64,000 bases of DNA from a virus (lineage: Duplodnaviria > Caudoviricetes). The notes under the pieces were generated by a model that was given only the letters and a program-made list of their open reading frames with translations, was not told where the DNA came from and searched no databases. Made by a program: the position numbers and the translations under genes. Shown here piece after piece: positions 21,420 through 54,901 of this stretch; the first letter of the stretch is position 1, and each line of letters opens with the position of its first letter. The stretch is from the IMG/VR virus record IMGVR_UViG_3300006805_000023. One strand, given 5' to 3'.

Positions 21420-22100
21420 ATGAGCACCACCACGACTCCAACGCCCCACGGGGCAATCATAGCAATCGAAGGCCTGGAGGGTGTTGGGAAATCCACTCAA
21501 GTCGTCTTGCTGGCTGATGCCTTGATGCGCCTCGGCTACGACGTCAAGACGCCACGGGAGCCAGGCGGGACGGGTTTTGGCGAGGAGGTGCGTCGCATTC
21601 TGAAGAATGGGGAGTACAAGCCGGTGCCGAAGGCCGAGCTGCTCATGTTCGAGGCCAGCCGTGCTCAGTTGATCGAGTCCATGCAGGACCATTTGGAAAA
21701 GGGTGGCATCCTGATCATGGACCGGTTCATCTGGTCCACCCTAGCCTACCAAGGAGCTGGCCGTGGCCTCGATTCTGTGGATATCAGGTTCCTCAATTCC
21801 TTCGCGACGTCCGGCGTGCATCCTGACTTGGTGGTGGTGCTCGACCTCACGGTTGCGGAATCGCGTGGCCGGTTGTTCAAGCGGAACGACATCACGGACA
21901 ACTTCGAGTCCCTTGCAGATCCGTTCTTCGAGCGTGCCAGAAACTGCTTCATCGAACTGTGCGCCGAGCACTCCGGGCGCTCCATCTTGCTCGACGCCAG
22001 GCAAGAGGTGCCGGTCATCCACACGCGTATTCTGGAAAAGACAGTGTCGATGCTATCGGCCAAAGGAGTCGTCCCGTCCTCTTCCTCCTGCCAGGCCTGA
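21420..22100 (+). CDS. tmk: Thymidylate kinase
   Basis: IEGLEGVGKSTQ, REPGGT, DRFIWSTLAYQG. Confidence 0.9.
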   Translation: MSTTTTPTPHGAIIAIEGLEGVGKSTQVVLLADALMRLGYDVKTPREPGGTGFGEEVRRILKNGEYKPVPKAELLMFEASRAQLIESMQDHLEKGGILIMDRFIWSTLAYQGAGRGLDSVDIRFLNSFATSGVHPDLVVVLDLTVAESRGRLFKRNDITDNFESLADPFFERARNCFIELCAEHSGRSILLDARQEVPVIHTRILEKTVSMLSAKGVVPSSSSCQA

Positions 22101-23079: not shown

Positions 23080-24396
23080 TTGAAGTGCTCATCCTGCAAC
23101 TCCCCGTCTAAGTCGCACAAGTCTGGCAAGTGCTCCGACTGTCGCCGTGATGGTTTCAAGGAAAGGTCACTGGCGATCTGGGACGACGCGGACGCCAAGG
23201 CTGCATGGGCAAAGTCGTGTACCTTCAAGCCGCGCTCAGCGCTGAACCAGCAGGTCGAGACTCTTCTAACCCGGCTCAATATTCACTACATCACCGAACA
23301 CGTCATCGGGCCATGGTCATTCGACGTGTTTATCCCGCACTGTGGCCTCCTGATCGAGTGCCAGGGCGAGTATTGGCACACGGTGTCCCGCAAGGAGCGC
23401 GCCGACCGGGCCAAGGCCACTTACGTGGAGTCGTACACCAAGCTGCGACTCCTGGAGGTGTGGGAGGTCGAGTTTTACAAGCAGGGGAGGCTGGAGTACC
23501 TGGTCAAGCGCGCCCTCGGACTCCTGGAAGTGCCTCCGCAGAGCAGCGTTGACTTCACGAAGCTCGACTGCCGGGTGGTTGATCGCCGCGACGCCAGCCA
23601 GCTTTACGGATCATCCCATTACCTTGGATCGTGCCGTGGCCGCTGGCACTTTGGTCTTTATCTGGGCGACCTTTTGATTGGCGCTTGTTCGTTCGGTCAG
23701 TTTCAGCGTAACGAGCAGACCCTCAAATACGAAGGAGCGTCGGAGCTTACCCGGTTCTGCATCGATTCGGCTTATCAAGTCAAGAACCTGGGGTCGTGGT
23801 TCCTATCACGCTCCCTCAAGCTCATCGGGGGTACCGTCGTAACCTATGCGGACCGCACCCAGGGGCATGACGGAGCGCTGTACAAAGCCACTAACTTCAC
23901 ATTCAGTCACGAGGTACCAAGCGATTACCACTACGTCGATCCGGGTGGTTGGGTGTTGCATAAAAAGACTGTCTGGAACCGGTCGGTGTCCATGAAGATG
24001 ACCGAGGCCGAGTATGCAGCTAAGCATGAGTTGTCGAAGAAATGGGGAGCTGCCAAGCTGTGCTTCATCTTCACGGGGACGCCTGCCCGGACGCACAAGA
24101 ACAAACCGCCAGTGCTGCAGCCGCGCAAGGTAGTCAGCGAGGTTGTCGGGAAGGTGGCTCAGCCCGTCCTTGATGTTGCCTTGATTCAGCAACTCAAGCT
24201 CGGCGGGACCTCTGCGGGAGCCCTGGCAACTCAGTTTAGCGTGTCCAGGGCTATGATCTTCCACACTGTGAAGCTTAGGCTCGTTGACTGTCACGAACAC
24301 GGTAAGCTCTGGTCCAAGAAGGACTCCTGCCCGAAATGCCGTGCTGTCCAGGGCTCTAAGGCTGGTGGTAAATGGGTCAAGGACGCGATGTCTTGA
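23080..24396 (+). CDS. Fusion of a DUF559/Vsr-like PD-(D/E)xK nuclease and a Mom-like GNAT domain
   Basis: WSFDVFIP..LIECQGEYWH; HYLG...ELTRFC...TYADRTQGHDGALYKATNF; N- and C-terminal Cys clusters. TTG start uncertain. Confidence 0.65.
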   Translation: MKCSSCNSPSKSHKSGKCSDCRRDGFKERSLAIWDDADAKAAWAKSCTFKPRSALNQQVETLLTRLNIHYITEHVIGPWSFDVFIPHCGLLIECQGEYWHTVSRKERADRAKATYVESYTKLRLLEVWEVEFYKQGRLEYLVKRALGLLEVPPQSSVDFTKLDCRVVDRRDASQLYGSSHYLGSCRGRWHFGLYLGDLLIGACSFGQFQRNEQTLKYEGASELTRFCIDSAYQVKNLGSWFLSRSLKLIGGTVVTYADRTQGHDGALYKATNFTFSHEVPSDYHYVDPGGWVLHKKTVWNRSVSMKMTEAEYAAKHELSKKWGAAKLCFIFTGTPARTHKNKPPVLQPRKVVSEVVGKVAQPVLDVALIQQLKLGGTSAGALATQFSVSRAMIFHTVKLRLVDCHEHGKLWSKKDSCPKCRAVQGSKAGGKWVKDAMS

Positions 24397-32908: not shown

Positions 32909-33334
32909 GTGAAGAACATCGTCGCCGCCGGAATCTGTTATTACTGCCCCTCAACCGGAAAGGTCTTGTTGGGGCAGCGCGGTGCGGACAGTGATGGGGG
33001 CTCCGGCGAGTGGGCAGCCTTCGGCGGTAAGCTCGAAGACGGCGAGACTCTGATACAATGCGCAGTCCGCGAGGTTCAGGAGGAGACCGGTTATAAGGAG
33101 TCCAAGCCGATGGCGCTCCGCCTCAACTACCGCTCGACCTGGACCCACGGCGACGTCCGGGTGGTGTTTTACTGCTTCATGCAAGCAGTGCCTGCCGAGT
33201 TTAAGCTCCCACAGCTCGACCAGACAGAGCACTCCAAAGCGGGCTGGTTCCCGGCGGACAAAATGCCAGCTGGGCTGCTCAAGCCGTTCGCCAGCAACCT
33301 CGACGTGGGAGCCCTCAAGCGCCTGAAGGTCTAG
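32909..33334 (+). CDS. Nudix hydrolase
   Basis: Canonical Nudix box GGKLEDGETLIQCAVREVQEETG. Confidence 0.9.
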   Translation: MKNIVAAGICYYCPSTGKVLLGQRGADSDGGSGEWAAFGGKLEDGETLIQCAVREVQEETGYKESKPMALRLNYRSTWTHGDVRVVFYCFMQAVPAEFKLPQLDQTEHSKAGWFPADKMPAGLLKPFASNLDVGALKRLKV

Positions 33335-33369: not shown

Positions 33370-34494
33370 ATGACCTCCCGTTATCAGGACCCCAAAATCG
33401 CCGAGATCTTCTCGGAAGACCGCAAGTATACCCTCTGGCTCCTCATCGAGGAGGCCTTGGTTAAAGCCCTCGCTCCGGAGGATGTCAGCAGACCGTTCTC
33501 GTCCTTCATCCAGGGGCTCCAGGGTGTTAATCTGACCAGCTTCATCAACGCCTGCAAACACGAGGAGCAAGGTACCAACCACGACGTCGGGGCGTTCCTG
33601 AACGTGCTGGAAGCCAGGGCTGACGGCTGCGTTTCTACCTTCCTGCATCGCGGCTTCACATCGTCCGATGTGGTTGACACTGCGACCAGTCTGCAGATTC
33701 ATGCTGCCCTCAGGCATATCGAGTGGCTCAAACACGACTTCAAGGAGGCCATCACGAACTCTGGAGACGCCGCGTGCGTCGGCTATACCCACGGGATGCC
33801 AGCCGAGGCGATGTGCCTCAGTGCGCGCTGGCAGCGCTGTTTCAACGAGCTGCGCGACCTACCACGGATCAAGCCGCATCTGACTGGACCACTCGGAGAC
33901 GCCAAGCATCTTGACATCGACACCAGGATCGAGCTGGCACGACTTCTCGGTTTCCATAACGATGGTGGAAAAGGCAGAGCGCCAGCCCAGCCCAACTACA
34001 TGCAGTGCTCGGAGCGGTCGGACTTTGCCAGACTGGCGTCGTCCATCGCGATCAACGGGAGCGTGCTTGCCAAGATGGCGCTCGACATGCGCCTGTTAGT
34101 GTTCAAGGGCGAAATGGGACGGGAAAAGGGGCACCACGAAATGGGCTCATCCGCGATGCCTCACAAAACCAACCCAGCTGATCTCGAAAAGGTTTGTGGT
34201 CTGGCCCGTGTGTTACGCGGCAACGCCATGGTCGCCATGGAGAACATTGAGCTCTGGTTGGAGCGCGACATCAGCCACAGCTCGACCGAGCGCATGTGGC
34301 TTCCCGACTCCTTCCACCTTTACTGCCACATGTTGACCATTATGACCAAGGCCGTCGTGAACTACAAGCCGACCCACGAAATGGGAGAGGCTCTAGTTGA
34401 TAATGAGAAGGACCTGCACACCGCAGCCAACGTGGTTCTGCTGCAAAAGCAGGGGATGGGACGCCGTGCCGCTTGGCTCAAAGTCAAAGGTTAA
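33370..34494 (+). CDS. purB: Adenylosuccinate lyase (compact, 374 aa)
   Basis: TNHDV, HRGFTSSDVVDT, THG, GSSAMPHKTNP signature, ERDISHSSTER. Confidence 0.88.
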   Translation: MTSRYQDPKIAEIFSEDRKYTLWLLIEEALVKALAPEDVSRPFSSFIQGLQGVNLTSFINACKHEEQGTNHDVGAFLNVLEARADGCVSTFLHRGFTSSDVVDTATSLQIHAALRHIEWLKHDFKEAITNSGDAACVGYTHGMPAEAMCLSARWQRCFNELRDLPRIKPHLTGPLGDAKHLDIDTRIELARLLGFHNDGGKGRAPAQPNYMQCSERSDFARLASSIAINGSVLAKMALDMRLLVFKGEMGREKGHHEMGSSAMPHKTNPADLEKVCGLARVLRGNAMVAMENIELWLERDISHSSTERMWLPDSFHLYCHMLTIMTKAVVNYKPTHEMGEALVDNEKDLHTAANVVLLQKQGMGRRAAWLKVKG

Positions 34495-37332: not shown

Positions 37333-37361
37333 TTGACAAGCGCAAGATTGTGTGATAAGTT
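37333..37361 (+). promoter_or_regulatory. Sigma70-like early promoter
   Basis: TTGACA-17-TAAGTT with TGn. Confidence 0.75.
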
Positions 37362-37393
37362 TCACCCGGCTTTCTAATCACGACTCCCACAGC

Positions 37394-38287
37394 ATGAACA
37401 GCGACTCCACCGAACCCGAACTCTACGACTCCGACGATCAGGAACCCTCAAGCTCCAGCTCCGCCGGAGGCGAAGAGGCCAAGCAGAACCTCCGCAAGCT
37501 CCACGAGGTGGCTGACGGGGATGCCGCCAAGCTCGTCAAGATGCTGGTGCTGGCTCAGAACAGCAACAGCGAAGGCGAGCGCACTGCTGCCCTCAAAAAG
37601 GCCAACGAGTTTGCGATCAAGAAACAGATCGACCTCGCCAGCATCGAAATGGAAGGCCTGGGTGAGACCAAAGGTCAAGCTGGGCTCTCCAACGAGCCTT
37701 TCGTGTCCACCAAGCACAAGACCGCCAAGAAGGACTGCCGCCGTCCCCCTTGCCACAAGTTCCTGAGCTGGCTTCTGGTCCGTCACTTCCGGGTGGATAT
37801 CCTGACTCATGGCAAGTGGGCTGCCTCCACGATCACACTCATCGGACGTCAGTCGGACGTGTCCTTCGCGATCTACGCCTATGACTTTCTGGTCGAGACC
37901 TTCAACCGTCTGTGGCGCGCTTACAAACAACGCACCAGCGCCAACCCAAGCGACCGCAACGCTTACTTTTACGGCCTCTACTGCCGTCTCCACGACACAC
38001 TCGTGAAAAGCACCGAAGAGACAATCCGTCAGGAACTGGCTCAGTTCTCTGAGGAGACTAAGGCTGCTCAGAAATGGGACGTCATGGTGATCGAGGAGAA
38101 GGACCTGCTCCAGCAGGCCACCAAGGATCACCACCCGACCGTCAAGTATGTGAAAGGTCCTGACATCGGACCCATCACCGACAAGAACATCATGTATGAC
38201 GGCATGGAGGACGGTAAGAAGATCGAGATTAACCGCCCCCTTGACAAAGACAGCCAGAAAGCCGAAAAGTCCGCCCTACCAGAATGA
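37394..38287 (+). CDS. DUF2786-like domain protein
   Basis: KLVKMLVLA.NSNSEGE..AALKKA..FA.K..ID; IGRQSDV; AYFYG; YMDGMEDG-like end. Confidence 0.65.
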   Translation: MNSDSTEPELYDSDDQEPSSSSSAGGEEAKQNLRKLHEVADGDAAKLVKMLVLAQNSNSEGERTAALKKANEFAIKKQIDLASIEMEGLGETKGQAGLSNEPFVSTKHKTAKKDCRRPPCHKFLSWLLVRHFRVDILTHGKWAASTITLIGRQSDVSFAIYAYDFLVETFNRLWRAYKQRTSANPSDRNAYFYGLYCRLHDTLVKSTEETIRQELAQFSEETKAAQKWDVMVIEEKDLLQQATKDHHPTVKYVKGPDIGPITDKNIMYDGMEDGKKIEINRPLDKDSQKAEKSALPE

Positions 38288-38724: not shown

Positions 38725-40305
38725 ATGCTGCCCTCCACCTCTCCCGTCCCCTCCCCACACGATCTGGTTTACCTTGAGCTGATGCGCCGTATCCGAGCGC
38801 ACGGTGACTACCGGATGGAACGCACCGGCACTGGTGCCTATTCGTTGTTCGCCCAGCAACTGCGCTTCGACCTGACGGACGGTAGCTTCCCGCTGCTGAC
38901 TACTAAGAAGGTCCACCTGCGCTCGATCATCCACGAGCTGCTCTGGTTCCTGAAGGGCGACACCAACATCAAGTACCTCAACGACAACGGCGTGACGATC
39001 TGGGATGAATGGGCCAACCCGGACGGCGACCTAGGACCTTGTTATGGCTATCAATGGCGTCAATGGGGGGAGTGGTCCACTCAGCGTTTGGAAAAGAAGG
39101 CACCTGTCGTTAAACGTCTGGAGGATGAAATCCCGCCTTTCTGCGACTACGATGTTTCCCTCCCTGAAGCCCCGGTCATTACCGATGCTGGCAAGGACGA
39201 GCGCAACCGCGCTCTCGTAAAGGTCGTGTTTCCACGTTCCTGCTACTCGTACACGATTCGAAAGGACCACGCCGAGAGGGGAGTGCGCGACCCCTATGCA
39301 CCGTCGAAGTGCGGAGTTGGCTGTCTCGGCGAGGATGAGAGGACGCTTGGGATTCCGGAGACAGTCCTCAAAAACCTCATCGCTTGCTGGAACAAAATGA
39401 TGGAACGCTGCTACGATCCGAAGTGCAAGGAATACAGGTTCTATGGTGCCATCGGAGTCAAGGTGTGCCGTCGCTGGCTCTGCAGATCCGCCTTCCTGAG
39501 CGACGCCACCAAGCTCCCGTGGTTTGAGCAAAAGTCGAAGGATCTGGCTGGATACCAGCTAGACAAGGACCATCTGGGAGACAGCACTTATTACTCGCCG
39601 ACCACCTGCGCTTGGGTTCCTGAGTGGGTTAACTCGGCTTACGCTCATACGCAGCCCTTCGTGGCGACAGCTCCGGACGGCACAGAGTATTATCACATTT
39701 CGCCTAGCGTGTTTGGCTCGATGCATCAATTGTCGGGGCATTCGATCTGCCGTTGTTTGCGTGGTGAGAGGCCTCACCATTTCGGCTGGAAGTTCTGCCC
39801 TGTTGAGGATCGAGGTCTGCGCTTTAGCTCCCCCACTGATCAGATCAAGCAGCTGGTCGAGGGCATCGTCAAAAGCCCTTACGGGAGACGCCACATTGTG
39901 TCGGCCTGGAATGTGAAAGACTTGCCCACGATGAAGCTCCCACCCTGCCATTGCCTGTTCCAATGCTTCGTCTCCTCGAAGGGCCGCCTGAGCCTCCACC
40001 TTTACCAGCGCTCCGCTGACTACCTGCTGGGCGTCCCCTTTAACATCGCGAGCTATGCGTTGCTGCTGCTCATGCTGGCTCAGGCCACTGGGAACAAGCC
40101 AGGCGAGCTGGTCATCACGTTCGGCGACGTCCACCTCTACTCCAACCATCTGGAGCAGGCCGACCTCCAGCTGTCCCGCGCCCCGTTCGGAGCGCCTCGA
40201 ATGGAGATCGGTGACTCAAAGGACATCTTCGGTTTCAAGTATGAGGACTTCAAACTGCTGGACTACACCTCCCATGCTTCCATCAAGGCCGCCATCGCCG
40301 TTTAG
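38725..40305 (+). CDS. thyA: Thymidylate synthase with in-frame endonuclease insertion
   Basis: RTGTG, FPLLTTKKV, ELLWFLKG, IWDEW, RRHIVSAWN, LPPCH, YQRSAD..LGVPFNIASY, GDVHLYSNH. Confidence 0.93.
   Translation: MLPSTSPVPSPHDLVYLELMRRIRAHGDYRMERTGTGAYSLFAQQLRFDLTDGSFPLLTTKKVHLRSIIHELLWFLKGDTNIKYLNDNGVTIWDEWANPDGDLGPCYGYQWRQWGEWSTQRLEKKAPVVKRLEDEIPPFCDYDVSLPEAPVITDAGKDERNRALVKVVFPRSCYSYTIRKDHAERGVRDPYAPSKCGVGCLGEDERTLGIPETVLKNLIACWNKMMERCYDPKCKEYRFYGAIGVKVCRRWLCRSAFLSDATKLPWFEQKSKDLAGYQLDKDHLGDSTYYSPTTCAWVPEWVNSAYAHTQPFVATAPDGTEYYHISPSVFGSMHQLSGHSICRCLRGERPHHFGWKFCPVEDRGLRFSSPTDQIKQLVEGIVKSPYGRRHIVSAWNVKDLPTMKLPPCHCLFQCFVSSKGRLSLHLYQRSADYLLGVPFNIASYALLLLMLAQATGNKPGELVITFGDVHLYSNHLEQADLQLSRAPFGAPRMEIGDSKDIFGFKYEDFKLLDYTSHASIKAAIAV
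39067..39834 (+). mobile_element. HNH-type homing-endonuclease-like domain inserted in frame in ThyA
   Basis: WNKMMERCY...YGAIGVKVCRRW, LDKD, YSPTTCAWV..VN, C-terminal SICRCLRG..HFGWKF; about 256 aa between QWRQW and TDQI. Confidence 0.8.
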
Positions 40306-40384
40306 TCCTAATGGTGAGTTTCAAGTCTATCAAGACAACTCACAAGGCCCAGTCGTCATAGCTCAACACCCATTTCCTCCACTC

Positions 40385-41131
40385 ATGCAAGACCAAACTA
40401 CCATCCCAACTCCTGCCGACGAGCAGGGCATCGAAATCCCACAGCCAGACGGAGCTGTGTCCGTTGTCGCCGACCCCTCGGGCCGTTTCGACTTCACCCA
40501 GGACTGGACCCGCCAGTTTCGCGGCAATGATCGCAAGTTCATGCAGAAGCACATGCTGGACTTCGCGGCTAAGACGGGCAGACCCATCCGCTATCTTGAA
40601 ATCGGCGTCTTTGAAGGCCGCAGCGGCTGCCACGTTCTGGACCACTACCCGGACCTGGAGTACACCGGCATCGACCTGTGGCAGACCAGCGGTCTGTCGC
40701 CGATCTACTACCCGTCCAAGGATGACACCGCGATCGGTGCGATTGAAGAGCGCGCCCGCAAGAACCTTGCCCTCTTCGAAGCTCAGGGCCGCAAGGTCAG
40801 GACCATGAAGGGCCAGGCCACCCGCTGCGTCTCCGAACTGCTCGAAGCCGGTGAGCGCTTCGACTGGATCTACATCGACGCCGCCCACTTCGCCCTCAAC
40901 GTGGTCGCTGAGGCCGCGATCGCCTGGCAGATGTTGGAAGTCGGCGGTTTGATGCTGTTCGACGACTACAAGGACCGTGGAGCCCGCAACACCACGCTGT
41001 CTGGTGGTGAGGCGTTTCTGCAGCTCGTGAACGCAGAGCGCCTGTTCCAGAATCACCAGCTCGGCGTCATCAAGAAGTCGGAGTCCCAGACTCAGCCGCT
41101 TTATCGGGCGCAGAAGCTTGGGAGTGAATAA
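40385..41131 (+). CDS. Class I SAM-dependent methyltransferase (Methyltransf_24-like)
   Basis: YLEIGVFEGRS, FDWIYIDAAH, GGLMLFDDY. Confidence 0.85.
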   Translation: MQDQTTIPTPADEQGIEIPQPDGAVSVVADPSGRFDFTQDWTRQFRGNDRKFMQKHMLDFAAKTGRPIRYLEIGVFEGRSGCHVLDHYPDLEYTGIDLWQTSGLSPIYYPSKDDTAIGAIEERARKNLALFEAQGRKVRTMKGQATRCVSELLEAGERFDWIYIDAAHFALNVVAEAAIAWQMLEVGGLMLFDDYKDRGARNTTLSGGEAFLQLVNAERLFQNHQLGVIKKSESQTQPLYRAQKLGSE

Positions 41132-41773: not shown

Positions 41774-43066
41774 ATGGCACCCGCTACAACACCACTCCCA
41801 CAAAACGTCCTCCCACCACGCGTCCTCAGCCCCGGCAAGATCGCCGCAGTCCTGGATGCTGGCTACGGCTCCTCTTCCAAAGGCCTCGTGTCGGCCTGGA
41901 TCACCAAGAACGAGCGCCCTGACTTCCTGCTCACCGCCAACGGTCGCAATTCCTCGCACACCGTGGTGGATAACTCCCTGAAGGCCTCCCGCGAGGCCAT
42001 GACACCATGCCAGCTCAAGGGCGAGTTCGTCTTCAAGGTCCTGCCGGTCGGAGCCTTCTACAACAAGTGGAAGGGCTACAACCCGATCATCTACATTGGC
42101 CCCGGTGCCGCTTTTACGGTCGAGGACCTCGTCAAGGAAATGAAGGCCTGCGAGCTGGACAAAACGCAGGTCTGGGTCCACCCGCTGGCATCGGTCGTCA
42201 CGGAGGCCGACATCGGCTATGAAAACGGCACTTGGGACTTCGACGGCAACCCACGCCCGCAGATCGACCACGACTCCGGCACCACCAAGCACGGCACCAC
42301 GGGCTCCGGCGTCGGAGCAGCTCGTGCCAAGAAGTCTCTGCGCAAAGGCAAGCAGTGGTATGATGTCTCCGACCAGCCTACGATGGGGCAGAGCGGCCTG
42401 ATGTTCGCCGACACCTTCGAAGAGGCCGTCCTGAAGCGCCTGGCTCTCGGCAAGACCGGCCTGCTGGACGGTTCTCAGGGTTACCTGCTGAGCCTCTACG
42501 GGAAGTTCTTCCCACACTGCACTTCACGCCCCGTCACCCTGGCCTCATTCTTCGCCGACATCAACCTCCCGGTCAGTGTGATCGGCAACGTCTGCGCGGT
42601 GGCCCGCACCTTCCCAATCCGGATCGCCAGCGTGCGCTATTTCCTGGACAACCAGCCCGTCACCCTCGCCGAGAAGGTCGAAGCGGAGTCGAGGGGCCTG
42701 TTCGTCAATACTGTGGACTCCAACTCCGGTGGCTGGTATCAGGACCAACGCGAGTTGACTTGGGAGCAGGTCAGCGAACAGGCCGGACGCCACATCGAGC
42801 CTCAGCTCACCAGTCTGACCAAGCTGCCACGTCGGATCGCCACGTGGTCCAAGGCCGCGATCCGCGATTTCCTGCTGCACAACGCCCCGCCGTGCGGCTG
42901 CAAGACTTACTTGTTTGTGACCTTCACGAATTATCTGAAGGGCTCCGAGATGAAGCACTGGATGCACCAGAACATCCATGAACTGGACGACGCCGTAACC
43001 GAGGTGCTACTGTCCGACTCCCCGGAGACTGACAGCGTGCTGCCACTGGTGCGGGACTTTGAGTGA
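41774..43066 (+). CDS. purZ: Divergent PurZ-type (adenylosuccinate synthetase family) ligase
   Basis: DAGYGSSSKG (Ser at the PurA catalytic Asp position), NSSHT, KVLP, DGSQG..LSL..FFPHCTSR, ARTFPIR, SGGWYQDQRELTWEQ, TSLTKLPRR, TFTNY. Confidence 0.8.
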   Translation: MAPATTPLPQNVLPPRVLSPGKIAAVLDAGYGSSSKGLVSAWITKNERPDFLLTANGRNSSHTVVDNSLKASREAMTPCQLKGEFVFKVLPVGAFYNKWKGYNPIIYIGPGAAFTVEDLVKEMKACELDKTQVWVHPLASVVTEADIGYENGTWDFDGNPRPQIDHDSGTTKHGTTGSGVGAARAKKSLRKGKQWYDVSDQPTMGQSGLMFADTFEEAVLKRLALGKTGLLDGSQGYLLSLYGKFFPHCTSRPVTLASFFADINLPVSVIGNVCAVARTFPIRIASVRYFLDNQPVTLAEKVEAESRGLFVNTVDSNSGGWYQDQRELTWEQVSEQAGRHIEPQLTSLTKLPRRIATWSKAAIRDFLLHNAPPCGCKTYLFVTFTNYLKGSEMKHWMHQNIHELDDAVTEVLLSDSPETDSVLPLVRDFE

Positions 43067-50953: not shown

Positions 50954-51841
50954 ATGATGGACCGAAAGATTATCATCGGGGGCCTCCCCCACCACGGCAA
51001 GACCACCATAGCAGGCATCATCGCGAGCAGGTTCGGAGTGACCTTCGCGAACACCTCGGACACCATCTACGAGCAGGTCGCCAAGGACTACGGCAAGACC
51101 GTCGAGGAGGTCCACGCGATGGATAAGGAGAAGCTGCGCCCGGAGCTGATCTTCGTGGGCGACACTCTGTGCAAGGTGCACGGCCTGGCCTATCTGACCC
51201 TGAAGCAGCTCGAAAAGCACGACGTGGTGTGCGGCGTCCGCAAGCCGCAGGAGCTGGCTCTGGTCCGGGCCGCCTATCCCAACTGCCTGTTTCTATGGGT
51301 GATCCGCCCCGGCTATCCGACGATCAAGGATAGCACCCAGCTTTCCCACAAGGACGCTGATCTGGTGATCATGAACGCGGGATCGGTCTCCGACCTGGAG
51401 TCACAGGTAACGTCTGGACTGGTCAACAACAGCCTGGGTCTGAGCCACCCCGGCAACAGCTTGTGGAACCTGCTGCACTGGTTCGCCTTCCAGCGTGACT
51501 GGAACGCACTGGAGCGCACCAACTTCATGCAGGCCTTTGAAACCCTGCTGTTCATCACCGGCAAGTCCTGCCCGTGCGCCATCGAGTTCCAGGCGATCAA
51601 GAAGGTCCTTCCGCCTCCGGCTGGGCACGACGAGTTCTGGAACTGGACTTTGCTGGTGCACGACTGGGTCAACTATAAGCGCGGCGTGCCTACCCACTGG
51701 GACTGGACCCAGGGCCATCCAGGGTTCAAGATCCTCAAGGAGGCGTTCTCATCTGGAACCGCCGAAGGCATCCTGTCCGGCACCTCTGTCCCAACCCAAC
51801 CAGCAACCGACCTCACTTACTGCGCGCCATGCTCAAAATAA
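50954..51841 (+). CDS. dNMP kinase-like P-loop domain fused to an Erv1/ALR-like sulfhydryl oxidase domain
   Basis: GGLPHHGKTT, GVRKPQE, IMNAGSVSDL; then GNSLWNLLHWFA, CPCAIEF, W..LVHDWVNYKRG, terminal CAPC. Confidence 0.65.
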   Translation: MMDRKIIIGGLPHHGKTTIAGIIASRFGVTFANTSDTIYEQVAKDYGKTVEEVHAMDKEKLRPELIFVGDTLCKVHGLAYLTLKQLEKHDVVCGVRKPQELALVRAAYPNCLFLWVIRPGYPTIKDSTQLSHKDADLVIMNAGSVSDLESQVTSGLVNNSLGLSHPGNSLWNLLHWFAFQRDWNALERTNFMQAFETLLFITGKSCPCAIEFQAIKKVLPPPAGHDEFWNWTLLVHDWVNYKRGVPTHWDWTQGHPGFKILKEAFSSGTAEGILSGTSVPTQPATDLTYCAPCSK

Positions 51842-52602: not shown

Positions 52603-52897
52603 GCCGCTGGTCCTAGCCTGGACGGCACCGGCACCCCCGGATTCAACCTGCAGCTACGATCACTCCACGGCGGAGACGCTGTTTGGGCGCTTCTTGATAA
52701 CCTGGAAGGGCTGGAAGATTCTGCCCGAAAATCTGGCGTGGGGTGAGAGCCCAGGCGATCCTGGATACACGCTTGATGAGACCCCGTGGGGTGAGTTTGA
52801 GTGCAGGGGGTGGGACTCCCTAGAAGAAGTCCAGAGGTGGGCGGAGGACGAGCTGGAGCGTCGGATGCGGCTCCAGCTCGAAAAGTTCACCGCTTAG
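52556..52897 (+). CDS. Hypothetical protein
   Basis: Trp-rich ORF (YDH...ITWKGWK); start uncertain. Confidence 0.5.
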   Translation: MSATPQQAATLPTSAKPLVLAWTAPAPPDSTCSYDHSTAETLFGRFLITWKGWKILPENLAWGESPGDPGYTLDETPWGEFECRGWDSLEEVQRWAEDELERRMRLQLEKFTA

Positions 52898-53910
52898 AGG
52901 ATCGAGAGCCTGCTGGTTGACAGGTGTTCCATGACGTCCTTGCGATCCTGATCACACCACCGGCAGTCGGCCATGTTTTGAAACACCAGATCGTGCTCCT
53001 TGGCGACGTTGGTACCCAGAAGCACCGGGTTGTCAGAGTTGATGGTGACTGGGATCTGCAGGCGTGCTGCCACAACCAGGGCCGTGTTAAGCTCCTGCTT
53101 GGAGATGGTCTCAGTCCGCAGGCAGGCCGTCGGGCAGACCTCGAAAGTGACCTTGCGCAGCCGCTCCATCTCTGGCTCATTCAGCTTGATGTGAGCAAGC
53201 GATTTGAGCAGGTCCAGGCCGTGGCCGATCCGCGTAACGCCCCCGATGACGTCCAGGACGTTCAGGACGTTCATCCCAGTGTCACGTGCTTCACCGACGT
53301 GGTAGGTCAGGAACAGACCCTTTGAGTAGGCTTCGTGGAGGGGAGGCAGCATGTTCCTGGCAATCCAGTCCTTGTCGCGCTCCTGACCGGTCTCGGTCCC
53401 GCAGATGTCGAAGCCGTCGGCACCGGCCTCAATGGCAGCACGCACGGAGCCCCACAGGACCGAGACCGGTTCACGCCGGTCCGCGCACACGATCAAACGG
53501 GTCGAAATCCCGTGGCAGTCACCGGCGTCGCTGAGTCCCTGACGGGCCGCCCGGATCAGTGGCACCAGCATGTCTGGGCCACGCCGGTAGGGATCGAAGC
53601 GCATGTCGATGTGCTGCAGCTTACCGCCGGTCATCAGGTACTGGTGGACCACGGCCTCGAAGCATGAGCGCCTCACGGCGTCCGGACCCTGCTGAATGTC
53701 CTCCACCATGGCGTGAGGACCGCTCTTACGGCTCAGAAACTCATCATGAGTGGTCGTGTTGTGCTTGGTCTTGGTCATCAATTCCTCCAGTTCAATCGAG
53801 CTGAGCATGGCCAGCTTGCGCCCGGACCGGTAGGCCAGCTCCCAGAGGATGTGTGGTGGAGTTGAGCCACCGAGGTGGCAGTGAAAGTCACAGTATTTAG
53901 TTTGCTGCAT
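52894..53910 (-). CDS. Adenosine/AMP deaminase-family amidohydrolase
   Basis: DFHCHLGGS, MRFDP, GFDICG, TYHVGE, RIGHG, EVCPT, INSDNP. Confidence 0.85.
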   Translation of the reverse strand: MQQTKYCDFHCHLGGSTPPHILWELAYRSGRKLAMLSSIELEELMTKTKHNTTTHDEFLSRKSGPHAMVEDIQQGPDAVRRSCFEAVVHQYLMTGGKLQHIDMRFDPYRRGPDMLVPLIRAARQGLSDAGDCHGISTRLIVCADRREPVSVLWGSVRAAIEAGADGFDICGTETGQERDKDWIARNMLPPLHEAYSKGLFLTYHVGEARDTGMNVLNVLDVIGGVTRIGHGLDLLKSLAHIKLNEPEMERLRKVTFEVCPTACLRTETISKQELNTALVVAARLQIPVTINSDNPVLLGTNVAKEHDLVFQNMADCRWCDQDRKDVMEHLSTSRLSIL

Positions 53911-54877
53911 AGACGGTTCCAAGTTTGATGCGTTCCTCGATTTTTGTGCGGTTGACTTCGGCCAGTTTCTCCACTGTGATCCCAAGCTCGTTGGCGGTGG
54001 CTACCAGATAAAACAGCACGTCGCTAAGCTCGTCAAGCATCCGGTCTTTTGCGCGGTGGCCGAGATCACTGGCGCTGACCTGGGAGCTGTTGATACGGCG
54101 CATCACCTTTTGAACCACTCCGAGGACCTCGCCGCCTTCGCTGGCGAGCCCGGAGGTCGTGTAAACCAGTCCGGACGGGTACTGGGCTACTCGTTTGACC
54201 CAGCCCTGGTAGGCGTCGAGCTGAGCAATCATGGTGTCCTCCTCAAGGGTGAACTCCATCGTGCAGCCACGGTCCGGCGGTGGCGAGGTGCGCAGCCGCA
54301 TCCCGAAGGACACCGCCTCCTTGGCGAGGAAGGCCACCAAGTGCGTGCTGGTGAGGTCTGAGTCCTGCACAGTGAGCACTCCAGTTTCCAGCTCGACCGT
54401 GGCGGTCGGGAAGTTCTTCTGCAGCAAGATGGCGAGCTTGCCAGCTACCACCTGAAGGGACGGCCCGAATGACACCGTGGCCCCGTTCTCGAACAGAGAT
54501 GAGAGGTCTGGGCGCGTGTAGCCCTCACCCTTGATCCACTTACCAGTAGGGTCGGCCAGATGGCCGGTCTCCGGGTCGCCCTTGGTGCAGTTTGAGCGGT
54601 GCACCTCGTCCCAGGCCAGCTGCATCACCGGAGCGATGCCGAGCCGGTTGGCAAGCTGGAAGATGAACACCAGCGCGTCGATCAGACAGTCGGTCGTGTG
54701 GGTCAGGCGCTCCCGTTCCGTCGGGAGGTCCTTGGCCTCGTCCAGCTCGGTCTGCAGCTCCTCCTTGAAAAAGGCCTGGTAGGTTTGAACGACGCTGGCG
54801 TCGAAGACGGGTTTGCCTGCCAGCGGGATTCTCCACTTTTCGGCAAAGGCGCGGATGTCGGATAGTTGATTGACCAT
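53897..54877 (-). CDS. Tandem MazG-like (all-alpha NTP pyrophosphohydrolase) two-domain protein
   Basis: Domain 1 EELQTELDE..IDALV..DEVHRSN..K..GKWIK..Y..PDL; domain 2 GLASEGGEV..DELSDVLFY..N..KIEER; overlaps deaminase start by 14 nt. Confidence 0.8.
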   Translation of the reverse strand: MVNQLSDIRAFAEKWRIPLAGKPVFDASVVQTYQAFFKEELQTELDEAKDLPTERERLTHTTDCLIDALVFIFQLANRLGIAPVMQLAWDEVHRSNCTKGDPETGHLADPTGKWIKGEGYTRPDLSSLFENGATVSFGPSLQVVAGKLAILLQKNFPTATVELETGVLTVQDSDLTSTHLVAFLAKEAVSFGMRLRTSPPPDRGCTMEFTLEEDTMIAQLDAYQGWVKRVAQYPSGLVYTTSGLASEGGEVLGVVQKVMRRINSSQVSASDLGHRAKDRMLDELSDVLFYLVATANELGITVEKLAEVNRTKIEERIKLGTVYAAN

Positions 54878-54901
54878 CCACACCAGAAAGCACTATAAGC
54901 C

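Follow-up and report, generated by a model that had tools for sequence, protein, structure and literature searches.

Does a large myovirus replace the adenine of its DNA with 2-aminoadenine (Z), and which enzymes would it use? The question is raised by a gene for a PurA-family protein at positions 41774..43066 of a 64,000-nucleotide (64-kb) stretch of the IMG/VR record IMGVR_UViG_3300006805_000023 (Duplodnaviria; Caudoviricetes), hereafter called the window. The gene resides in a T4-like (gp23-type) jumbo myovirus whose contig is 218,247 bp long. A preliminary description of the locus had proposed a divergent PurZ-type synthetase and a candidate Z genome. Our analysis places the protein in a distinct clade of PurZ-type enzymes, termed clade W. 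On the sequence evidence, we consider it rather probable that the phage encodes a self-contained Z pathway, in which deamination takes the place of the DatZ step.

The synthetase gene and the motifs of its product are as follows.

41774..43066, plus strand: PurZ-like synthetase of clade W, predicted N6-succino-2-amino-2'-deoxyadenylate synthase; 430 amino acids, PF00709, PHROG 1211.
Synthetase residues 32-37: GSSSKG.
Synthetase residues 59-63: NSSHT.
Synthetase residues 232-236: DGSQG.
Synthetase residues 318-332: SGGWYQDQRELTWEQ.
Synthetase residues 346-349: TSLT.
Synthetase residues 383-387: TFTNY.

The open reading frame (ORF) begins with ATG and is intact over its 430 amino acids. Its GC content at third codon positions (GC3) is 0.82, which is coding-type and typical of real genes in a window of 59% GC, and the identical 430-residue product was called on an independent 21.6-kb metagenome contig of the Joint Genome Institute (JGI). 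All motifs quoted in the preliminary description of a PurA-family protein are located in this product. The protein does not end at TFTNY, as stated there; 43 residues come after this motif and are folded with high confidence in the structural model. The patterns given for PurA (GDEGKG, Asp333) and PurZ (GSTGKG, NFxNY) agree with the aligned sequences of E. coli PurA and of the phiVC8, S-2L, SH-Ab 15497 and PMBT28 proteins.

The family assignment is supported by both profile and structure comparisons. The synthetase matches PF00709 with 44.5 bits, above the Pfam cut-off of 27, and PHROG 1211 ('2-aminooxy adenylosuccinate synthetase') with an E value of 6e-36. Among the NCBIfam models, that of PurZ (NF038379) is the best match with 161.3 bits, followed by archaeal-type PurA with 72 and bacterial PurA with 45, and the PurA models (TIGR00184 / NF003295) miss their cut-offs (45 bits vs 395.55, 72 vs 368). 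Sequence matches to solved structures are strongest for phiVC8 PurZ (E 3e-25) and S-2L PurZ (3e-20), followed by P. horikoshii PurA (1e-15) and E. coli PurA (0.1). The AlphaFold2 model, built on 120 homologues, has a predicted local distance difference test score (pLDDT) of 94.1 and a predicted template modelling score (pTM) of 0.93. It adopts the PurA-superfamily fold, with a template modelling score (TM) of 0.82 to 6FM1. In the Foldseek search, phiVC8 PurZ with deoxyguanosine monophosphate (dGMP) and ATP ranks at the top (TM 0.82), followed by S-2L PurZ, archaeal PurA, PurZ0, and then the bacterial and eukaryotic PurA structures.

An exhaustive profile-free search returned 1,220 homologues of the synthetase, and a search of 5.8 billion proteins returned approximately 39 relatives at 30-81% identity, many of them on contigs of 90-218 kb. 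Ser occupies the position of the catalytic Asp in each of the 165 homologues whose aligned sequence includes the P-loop. In addition, 133 aligned homologues combine Ser with Asn (PurZ type) and 26 combine Ser with Asp (PurZ0 type). A 71-row balanced subset was used to build the tree with IQ-TREE, with ultrafast bootstrap and SH-aLRT supports given below as paired values. PurZ of phiVC8, S-2L, SH-Ab 15497 and PMBT28, PurZ0 of Wayne and Ghobes, and E. coli PurA served as references. A PurZ0-type query returned approximately 3,700 close phage-type proteins only, with no archaeal PurA; the Asp-type references of archaeal type and long type were taken from genomes, with long PurA as the outgroup.

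In this tree, the Asp-type short PurA proteins are basal and all Ser-type proteins form one clade (100/99). The PurZ0 clade (100/97) diverges before the Ser+Asn PurZ clade (100/99), which is composed of classical PurZ (99/98) and a superclade of large-phage proteins (96/96). This superclade is separate from all characterised PurZ members and comprises clade W (100/100), which holds the window protein and has a long stem branch (0.36-0.52), and its sister clade M (100/99), which includes the protein of the Flavobacterium myovirus MaF61. When clade W is constrained to group with the Asp-type PurA, the log-likelihood falls by 106 units, and the approximately unbiased (AU) test rejects this topology (p-AU 0.0008). 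The preliminary description had called for a phylogeny with PurA, PurZ and PurZ0 and had named clustering with PurA as the contrary result; with that clustering rejected, the distinct PurZ clade proposed there is recovered as a clade of its own within the Ser+Asn radiation, outside PurZ0 and the Asp-type PurA. Identification of the synthetase as PurA is ruled out by Ser and Asn at the key positions, the sub-cut-off scores and the topology test, and identification as PurZ0 by Asn386 (not Asp) and the position outside the Wayne/Ghobes clade. The Asn that specifies ATP over GTP is flipped to Asp in two classical PurZ homologues (P0136, P0147) and in two members of clade M (P0067, P0069). Given these repeated flips within Asn-type clades, donor specificity may be evolutionarily labile.

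The residues that define PurZ specificity are retained in clade W. In the residue roles summarised for phiVC8 PurZ, F295 and Y298 stack the adenine of ATP, and the S14D substitution abolishes selectivity (bioRxiv 2025.10.22.683976). S14, T262, F295, N297 and Y298 (phiVC8 numbering) correspond to S33, T346, F384, N386 and Y387 of the window protein, and all five are present in 15/15 clade W members. At the positions of S33, T346, F384, Y387 and N386, the PurA residues are D, G, K, V and D, respectively. The further PurZ-discriminating residues W252, Y244 and P233 are also retained, and the equivalent of phiVC8 F12 is Y31, a conservative change that is variable within clade W. The preliminary description had raised an altered substrate as a possibility; judged from this alignment, the five kept residues, which are validated for dGMP and ATP specificity, favour ordinary PurZ chemistry.

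The unusual motifs are likewise shared throughout the clade. Across its 15 members (42-81% identity), the P-loop Ser at the Asp13 position, NSSHT, DGSQG and T-F-x-N-Y are conserved, and the P-loop position normally held by Gly is Ser or Ala in 13/15. This recurrence in the 15 closest members indicates that the odd motifs are selected features, rather than products of chance or sequencing error. Private to clade W are the invariant Arg58, Ser60-Ser61, Asp232 and Thr383, together with Ser/Ala at the third P-loop glycine; such substitutions might adjust catalysis or the choice of substrate. The catalytic K, H, Q and RR residues are kept in the synthetase, and 38 columns are invariant over 29 homologues, including the catalytic K36, H62, Q235 and R353-R354.

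Many homologues of 750-1200 amino acids are split by inteins containing Hint and LAGLIDADG endonuclease domains. Inteins typically lodge in conserved sites of replication-essential genes, and the intein invasion of many homologues follows the pattern of such genes. One or two LAGLIDADG inteins, at differing conserved sites, are present in the large-phage-lineage homologues P0055, P0059, P0064, P0068, P0072, P0085, P0164 and P0180. The long homologues were also considered as Rosetta-stone fusions to PurB or another enzyme, which was rejected because their extra length consists of intein insertions.

The window contains further genes with potential functions in purine metabolism.

33370..34494, plus strand: PurB-like adenylosuccinate lyase, 374 amino acids; TIGR00928, E 1.6e-57; adenylosuccinate lyases of the Protein Data Bank (PDB), E 4e-35.
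32909..33334, plus strand: NUDIX hydrolase; PHROG 1198, E 7e-27; weak MutT-type NCBIfam matches.
53897..54883, minus strand: two-domain (tandem) MazG-like nucleotide pyrophosphohydrolase; PHROG 671 (residues 5-132), PHROG 229 (residues 215-322); Pfam MazG and MazG-like.
52894..53910, minus strand: adenosine deaminase (ADA)-family protein, 338 amino acids; PF00962, E 3e-27; TIGR01430, E 4e-29.
50954..51841, plus strand: deoxynucleoside monophosphate (dNMP) kinase-like protein; PHROG 139, E 6e-14; weak Pfam DNMK match.

The PurB-like lyase keeps the signature loop GSSAMPHKTNP and both catalytic His motifs (THG and NHD), and its C-terminus is approximately 60 residues shorter than that of cellular PurB. 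The NUDIX gene ends 35 nucleotides upstream of the lyase gene on the same strand. The deaminase starts with the ATG at 53910 in both the gene atlas and JGI calls (the longest ORF extends to 53985), and its gene overlaps the stop of the MazG-like gene by 14 nucleotides. The MazG-like protein itself has only faint similarity to S-2L MazZ (E 0.28). In an alignment with four phage homologues, the HxH, HVGE and GHG motifs and the zinc-binding Asp of the deaminase are invariant, and the phage deaminases depart from the canonical DD pair by having D followed by N, G or S. The nearest defence family of the deaminase is CARF-ADA (PADLOC). A resemblance to RADAR/RdrB was sought and not found; the PADLOC match is to CARF-ADA. 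The purine genes are dispersed and conserved gene order is mostly absent among relatives, with the deaminase and lyase genes adjacent in one relative.

The partners of the synthetase were compared across phage records. An alignment-based scan of IMG/VR yielded 80 loci, and 50 full records were then searched; a single-sequence scan of viral contigs for the synthetase gave no match, unlike the alignment-based scan. The large-phage group contains 29 records with contigs up to 370 kb, many of them fragmentary, and the classical small PurZ group contains 21 records, mostly complete. The fragmentary records make absences in them weak evidence, which applies to the following counts.

Large-phage group (n=29): PurB-like gene in 9 records, ADA-like gene in 8, DatZ in 0.
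Classical small PurZ phages (n=21): PurB-like gene in 0 records, ADA-like gene in 0, DatZ in 18.

The two groups differ in all three genes, with Fisher p values of 0.0065 (PurB-like), 0.015 (ADA-like) and 7e-11 (DatZ). Phage-encoded PurB is a trait of the large-phage lineage. The distribution of DatZ (0/29 vs 18/21) and of the deaminase (8/29 vs 0/21) identifies the two as mutually exclusive partners of PurZ-type genes. Among the large-phage records that are at least 55% complete, 8/9 carry the deaminase (p 1.5e-6), as do 5/5 of those at least 90% complete. A reverse test starting from the deaminase found a PF00709 gene on 2/2 additional viral contigs, in one case within approximately 2 kb; the reverse scan had low sensitivity and gave six loci, four of which were inputs. 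The matches to family A polymerases in the large-phage group are heterogeneous and mostly weak, and are uninformative on a DpoZ-like enzyme.

Among isolate phages, such a deaminase was found in 2/50,697 records. The first is OR846589.1 (Enterococcus phage Efs 1-1-1, 139 kb), with a homologue at 78803-79741 of 26.6% identity, and the second is PQ520147.1 (Enterococcus phage IME_EF3), a record of 2.8 kb. The deaminase homologues of two large IMG/VR records, G023 (locus L100) and G002 (locus L102), contain a single in-frame TAA or TAG, which could reflect stop-codon recoding, a pseudogene or a sequencing error.

From the family and clade of the synthetase, its conserved catalytic and specificity residues, the gene content, the lineage-wide co-occurrence and the absence of DatZ, we infer substrates, an order of steps and a DNA composition as follows. 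The PurZ-type enzyme would condense dGMP with aspartate, using ATP or dATP as the phosphate donor, to form N6-succino-2-amino-dAMP. The phage PurB-like lyase would then release fumarate to give the Z monophosphate dZMP, which the phage dNMP kinase together with the host nucleoside diphosphate (NDP) kinase would convert to the triphosphate dZTP. The MazG-like and NUDIX pyrophosphohydrolases would cleave dGTP to provide dGMP, and dATP to give dAMP. The deaminase, whose gene is predicted to be co-transcribed with the MazG-like gene, would destroy the adenine pool by turning dAMP or dATP into dIMP or dITP, and would fill the role of the HD-phosphohydrolase DatZ of small Z-phages. Phage DNA would then contain 2-aminoadenine in place of most or all of its A. 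The proposal of a candidate Z genome is thus strengthened by the PurB-like, MazG-like, NUDIX and dNMP kinase genes and by an ADA-family deaminase that appears to replace DatZ lineage-wide, and it retains the status of a candidate. KomA, an ADA-family dAMP deaminase, provides a precedent for ADA enzymes acting on nucleotides (bioRxiv 2024.12.20.629578).

The remainder of the window is in line with a large myovirus. Its structural genes encode a gp23-type major capsid protein, a prohead protease, a tail tube protein, and gp5- and gp6-like baseplate proteins, and its replication and recombination genes encode UvsX, a gp46/SbcC-like nuclease and a topoisomerase subunit. The capsid protein shares no more than 32% identity with its counterpart in any isolate, and Bacillus SP-15 and Listeria LIS04 come nearest. 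Public sequencing runs that contain DNA of this phage are wastewater and freshwater metagenomes. Further genes of the window are listed here.

21420..22100, plus strand: thymidylate kinase; PHROG 761, E 3.5e-31; nucleotide-pool context.
23080..24396, plus strand: Mom-family domain protein, 438 amino acids; PF25680, E 1e-16, above cut-off; weak REase_MTES_1575/HNH-like N-terminus.
37352..38287, plus strand: DUF7168 protein; PHROG 421; between the PurB-like and PurZ-like genes.
38725..40305, plus strand: thymidylate synthase (ThyA) with an inserted HNH endonuclease domain; PHROG 160, E 1e-99; HNH PHROGs at residues 175-363; PF00303 (JGI contig).
40055..41131, plus strand: Methyltransf_24-type S-adenosylmethionine (SAM) methyltransferase; JGI call of 248 amino acids; weak PHROG 'DNA methyltransferase' match.

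The thymidylate synthase has 526 residues, of which approximately 190 belong to an in-frame HNH insert with ThyA matches on both flanks; its presence implies that T is made conventionally. A DUF7168 homologue (35% identity) directly adjoins the PurB-like gene in two related viral contigs (loci L016, L018, L091, L092). The Methyltransf_24-type gene precedes the PurZ-like gene by approximately 640 nucleotides, and a DUF1353 gene on the minus strand lies in the interval. The Mom-family gene, located beside a putative A-to-Z pathway, raises the question of which base its product acts on.

Several observations weigh against the proposed Z pathway. Its main weak point is the deaminase, which would have to spare Z-nucleotides, that is, to exclude the 2-amino group; canonical ADA chemistry would turn Z-nucleotides back to G. 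Homologues of DatZ, MazZ and DpoZ are not detectable within the 64-kb window, and the gene content is read from this window, a limited part of the 218,247-bp contig. The score of the synthetase, 161.3 bits, is well below the curated PurZ cut-off of 300, although every other model scores far lower, and the changes private to clade W fall at normally fixed positions near the active site. In addition, the PurB-like and ADA-like genes are missing from some members of the large-phage lineage: several complete genomes are without a PurB-like gene, and MaF61 has the PurB-like gene and no deaminase was found in it. The Mom protein of phage Mu modifies N6 of adenine, and the Mom-family gene in the window hints that this position may still be a target, with A persisting. 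Finally, short PurA-like genes of the Ser type are frequent in bacterial chromosomes and metagenome-assembled genomes (MAGs), with at least 575 pattern matches, and Ser alone is therefore no proof of a Z-genome. The bacterial Ser-type genes have GS[ET]GKG and keep Asp in the nucleoside triphosphate (NTP) motif; they occur in complete Sorangium chromosomes and in Mesorhizobium and Bradyrhizobium drafts.

Three other explanations were considered. In one of them, PurZ-type chemistry acts on a different substrate (GMP, dIMP or another 6-oxopurine), or its product is further processed, for example by the Mom-family protein, to a purine other than plain Z. Such a change would fit the invariant clade-specific substitutions at positions fixed in PurA, PurZ0 and PurZ, the long stem branch and sub-threshold PurZ model score, the Mom-family domain in the window, and the unusual accessory set with a deaminase and its own lyase. 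However, clade M, which is without most of the private changes, has the same PurB-like and ADA-like partners, and the PurB-like lyase fits an aspartate donor with elimination of fumarate; we regard this explanation as unlikely. A related reading is doubtful to a slightly greater degree, namely that clades W and M carry out a self-sufficient purine replacement that yields a base other than plain 2-aminoadenine, with adenine nucleotides eliminated by deamination. Candidates for such a base would be a Mom-type N6-acylated diaminopurine or a purine derived from a different 6-oxo substrate.

The same genes could also form a purine-pool module that replaces no DNA base, through which the phage, with MazG/NUDIX, might rebalance A/G (deoxy)nucleotide pools, recycle nucleotides of the host or counter host immunity that is based on nucleotides. 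A PurA-like, a PurB-like and an A_deaminase protein together formally make up the enzymes of the purine nucleotide cycle, and the synthetase, lyase and deaminase of the window resemble this cycle. Moreover, nucleotide-metabolism genes are frequent in large phages, the genes here are dispersed rather than clustered, and Ser-type PurA-like genes reside in many bacterial chromosomes. Against this stand the replacement, in every member, of the Asp for IMP chemistry by Ser and of the GTP-specifying Asp by Asn, the nesting of clade W in PurZ and not in PurA, the mutual exclusivity of DatZ and deaminase, which fits a shared dA-excluding role, and the near absence of the deaminase from other phages (2/50,697). 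A purine-pool function is, on balance, improbable. It is highly implausible that the synthetase is a remnant of the PurA family, in decay or without catalytic activity, that takes no part in nucleotide chemistry, since its substitutions at several PurA-fixed positions and sub-threshold hidden Markov model scores are countered by the intact 430-residue frame with strong coding bias, the 38 invariant columns over 29 homologues that include the catalytic residues, the very confident fold, and the deep-clade conservation and intein invasion of homologues.

The Z pathway with a deaminase in place of DatZ, if true, extends the known range of adenine replacement. Z-genomes have been documented so far only in small sipho- and podoviruses. 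The statement in the preliminary description that characterised Z phages are mostly small sipho/podophages is consistent with the phage database matches, which are 38-82 kb except for MaF61, and with a 2026 survey of Z-phages (PMC12884076). This survey distinguishes only PurZ0 and PurZ, in seven groups, and makes no mention of myoviruses, jumbo phages, PurB or a deaminase. Current accounts leave the lyase step to the host and name DatZ as the enzyme that eliminates dATP, with DutZ/DmtZ in this role in PurZ0 phages; in one paper and one preprint, both from 2025, the lyase step is still ascribed to the bacterial or host PurB. In our literature search, no paper was found that joins PurZ with an adenosine deaminase, treats PurZ in jumbo phages or describes the clade W system.

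Large myoviruses probably also rewrite their DNA purines, by a route partly different from that of small phages. Whole-genome adenine replacement would then also occur in viruses with a different replication machinery, namely large myoviruses and jumbo phages, whose contigs measure 130-370 kb. The pathway would gain a phage-encoded PurB tuned to the 2-amino intermediate, as well as a third, chemically distinct means of adenine exclusion in the form of an ADA-family deaminase that would have to discriminate A from Z. Such a deaminase and the altered-P-loop synthetase would be useful parts for Z-DNA production in vivo. The hypothesis lends itself to immediate testing, since MaF61 of sister clade M is in culture on Flavobacterium sp. 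B330.

Compared with known systems, the window protein is closest to PurZ of Vibrio phage phiVC8 (DgsS; 6FM1/6FKO/6TNH) and cyanophage S-2L (7ODX), which are its best matches (E 3e-25, TM 0.80-0.82) and belong to the same major clade. It shares with them the Ser in place of the catalytic Asp, the Thr at the T262 position and the F/N/Y pocket for ATP. It differs in having 25-27% identity, approximately 85 extra residues in four structured insertions or extensions, and GSSSKG, NSSHT, DGSQG and T383 where phiVC8/S-2L PurZ has GSTGKG, NAGHT, EGAQG and N294. The genomes differ as well, since the one described here is a 218-kb myovirus with PurB-like and ADA-like genes, whereas the phiVC8/S-2L type is a 40-kb sipho/podovirus with DatZ/MazZ/DpoZ.

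The closest isolate homologue (29.7% identity, E 2e-40) is ORF141, 'putative adenosuccinate synthetase', of MaF61, a 168-kb cultured Flavobacterium myovirus; the MaF61 paper leaves ORF141 undiscussed (PMC13269007). Like the window phage, MaF61 is a large myovirus, with a PurB-like gene of its own and ADA-like genes in its clade M relatives. Clade M differs from clade W by keeping the P-loop Gly (GSSGKG) and the Asn of NFxNY, and by having NA[SAG]H and EI[AG]QG. PurZ0 of Arthrobacter phage Wayne and Gordonia phage Ghobes (7VF6) resembles the window protein in the P-loop Ser, the short archaeal-type scaffold and the T at the T383 position, but keeps the GTP-specifying Asp, which is Asn in the window protein, and forms a separate, earlier-branching clade. 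The partners of PurZ0 are DutZ, DmtZ and DUF5664 (PMC12884076). PurA (P. horikoshii 5K7X/2D7U; E. coli 1ADE) has the same fold, with TM 0.82 to the archaeal enzyme, and shares K16, H41, Q224 and the Arg pair, whereas its Asp13, Gly298, Lys331 and Asp333 are all replaced in the window protein.

For the exclusion of adenine, the ADA-like and MazG-like pair may share with DatZ (dATP triphosphohydrolase) and DmtZ/DutZ of Z-phages the removal of adenine deoxynucleotides, a role proposed by analogy. The ADA-like deaminase has an unrelated fold, and its predicted reaction is a hydrolytic deamination at C6 of the amidohydrolase type, in contrast to phosphohydrolysis or N-glycoside cleavage. PurZ chemistry is the most likely activity of the window protein, while its lineage and the type of virus that carries it are new, as is part of the accessory pathway.

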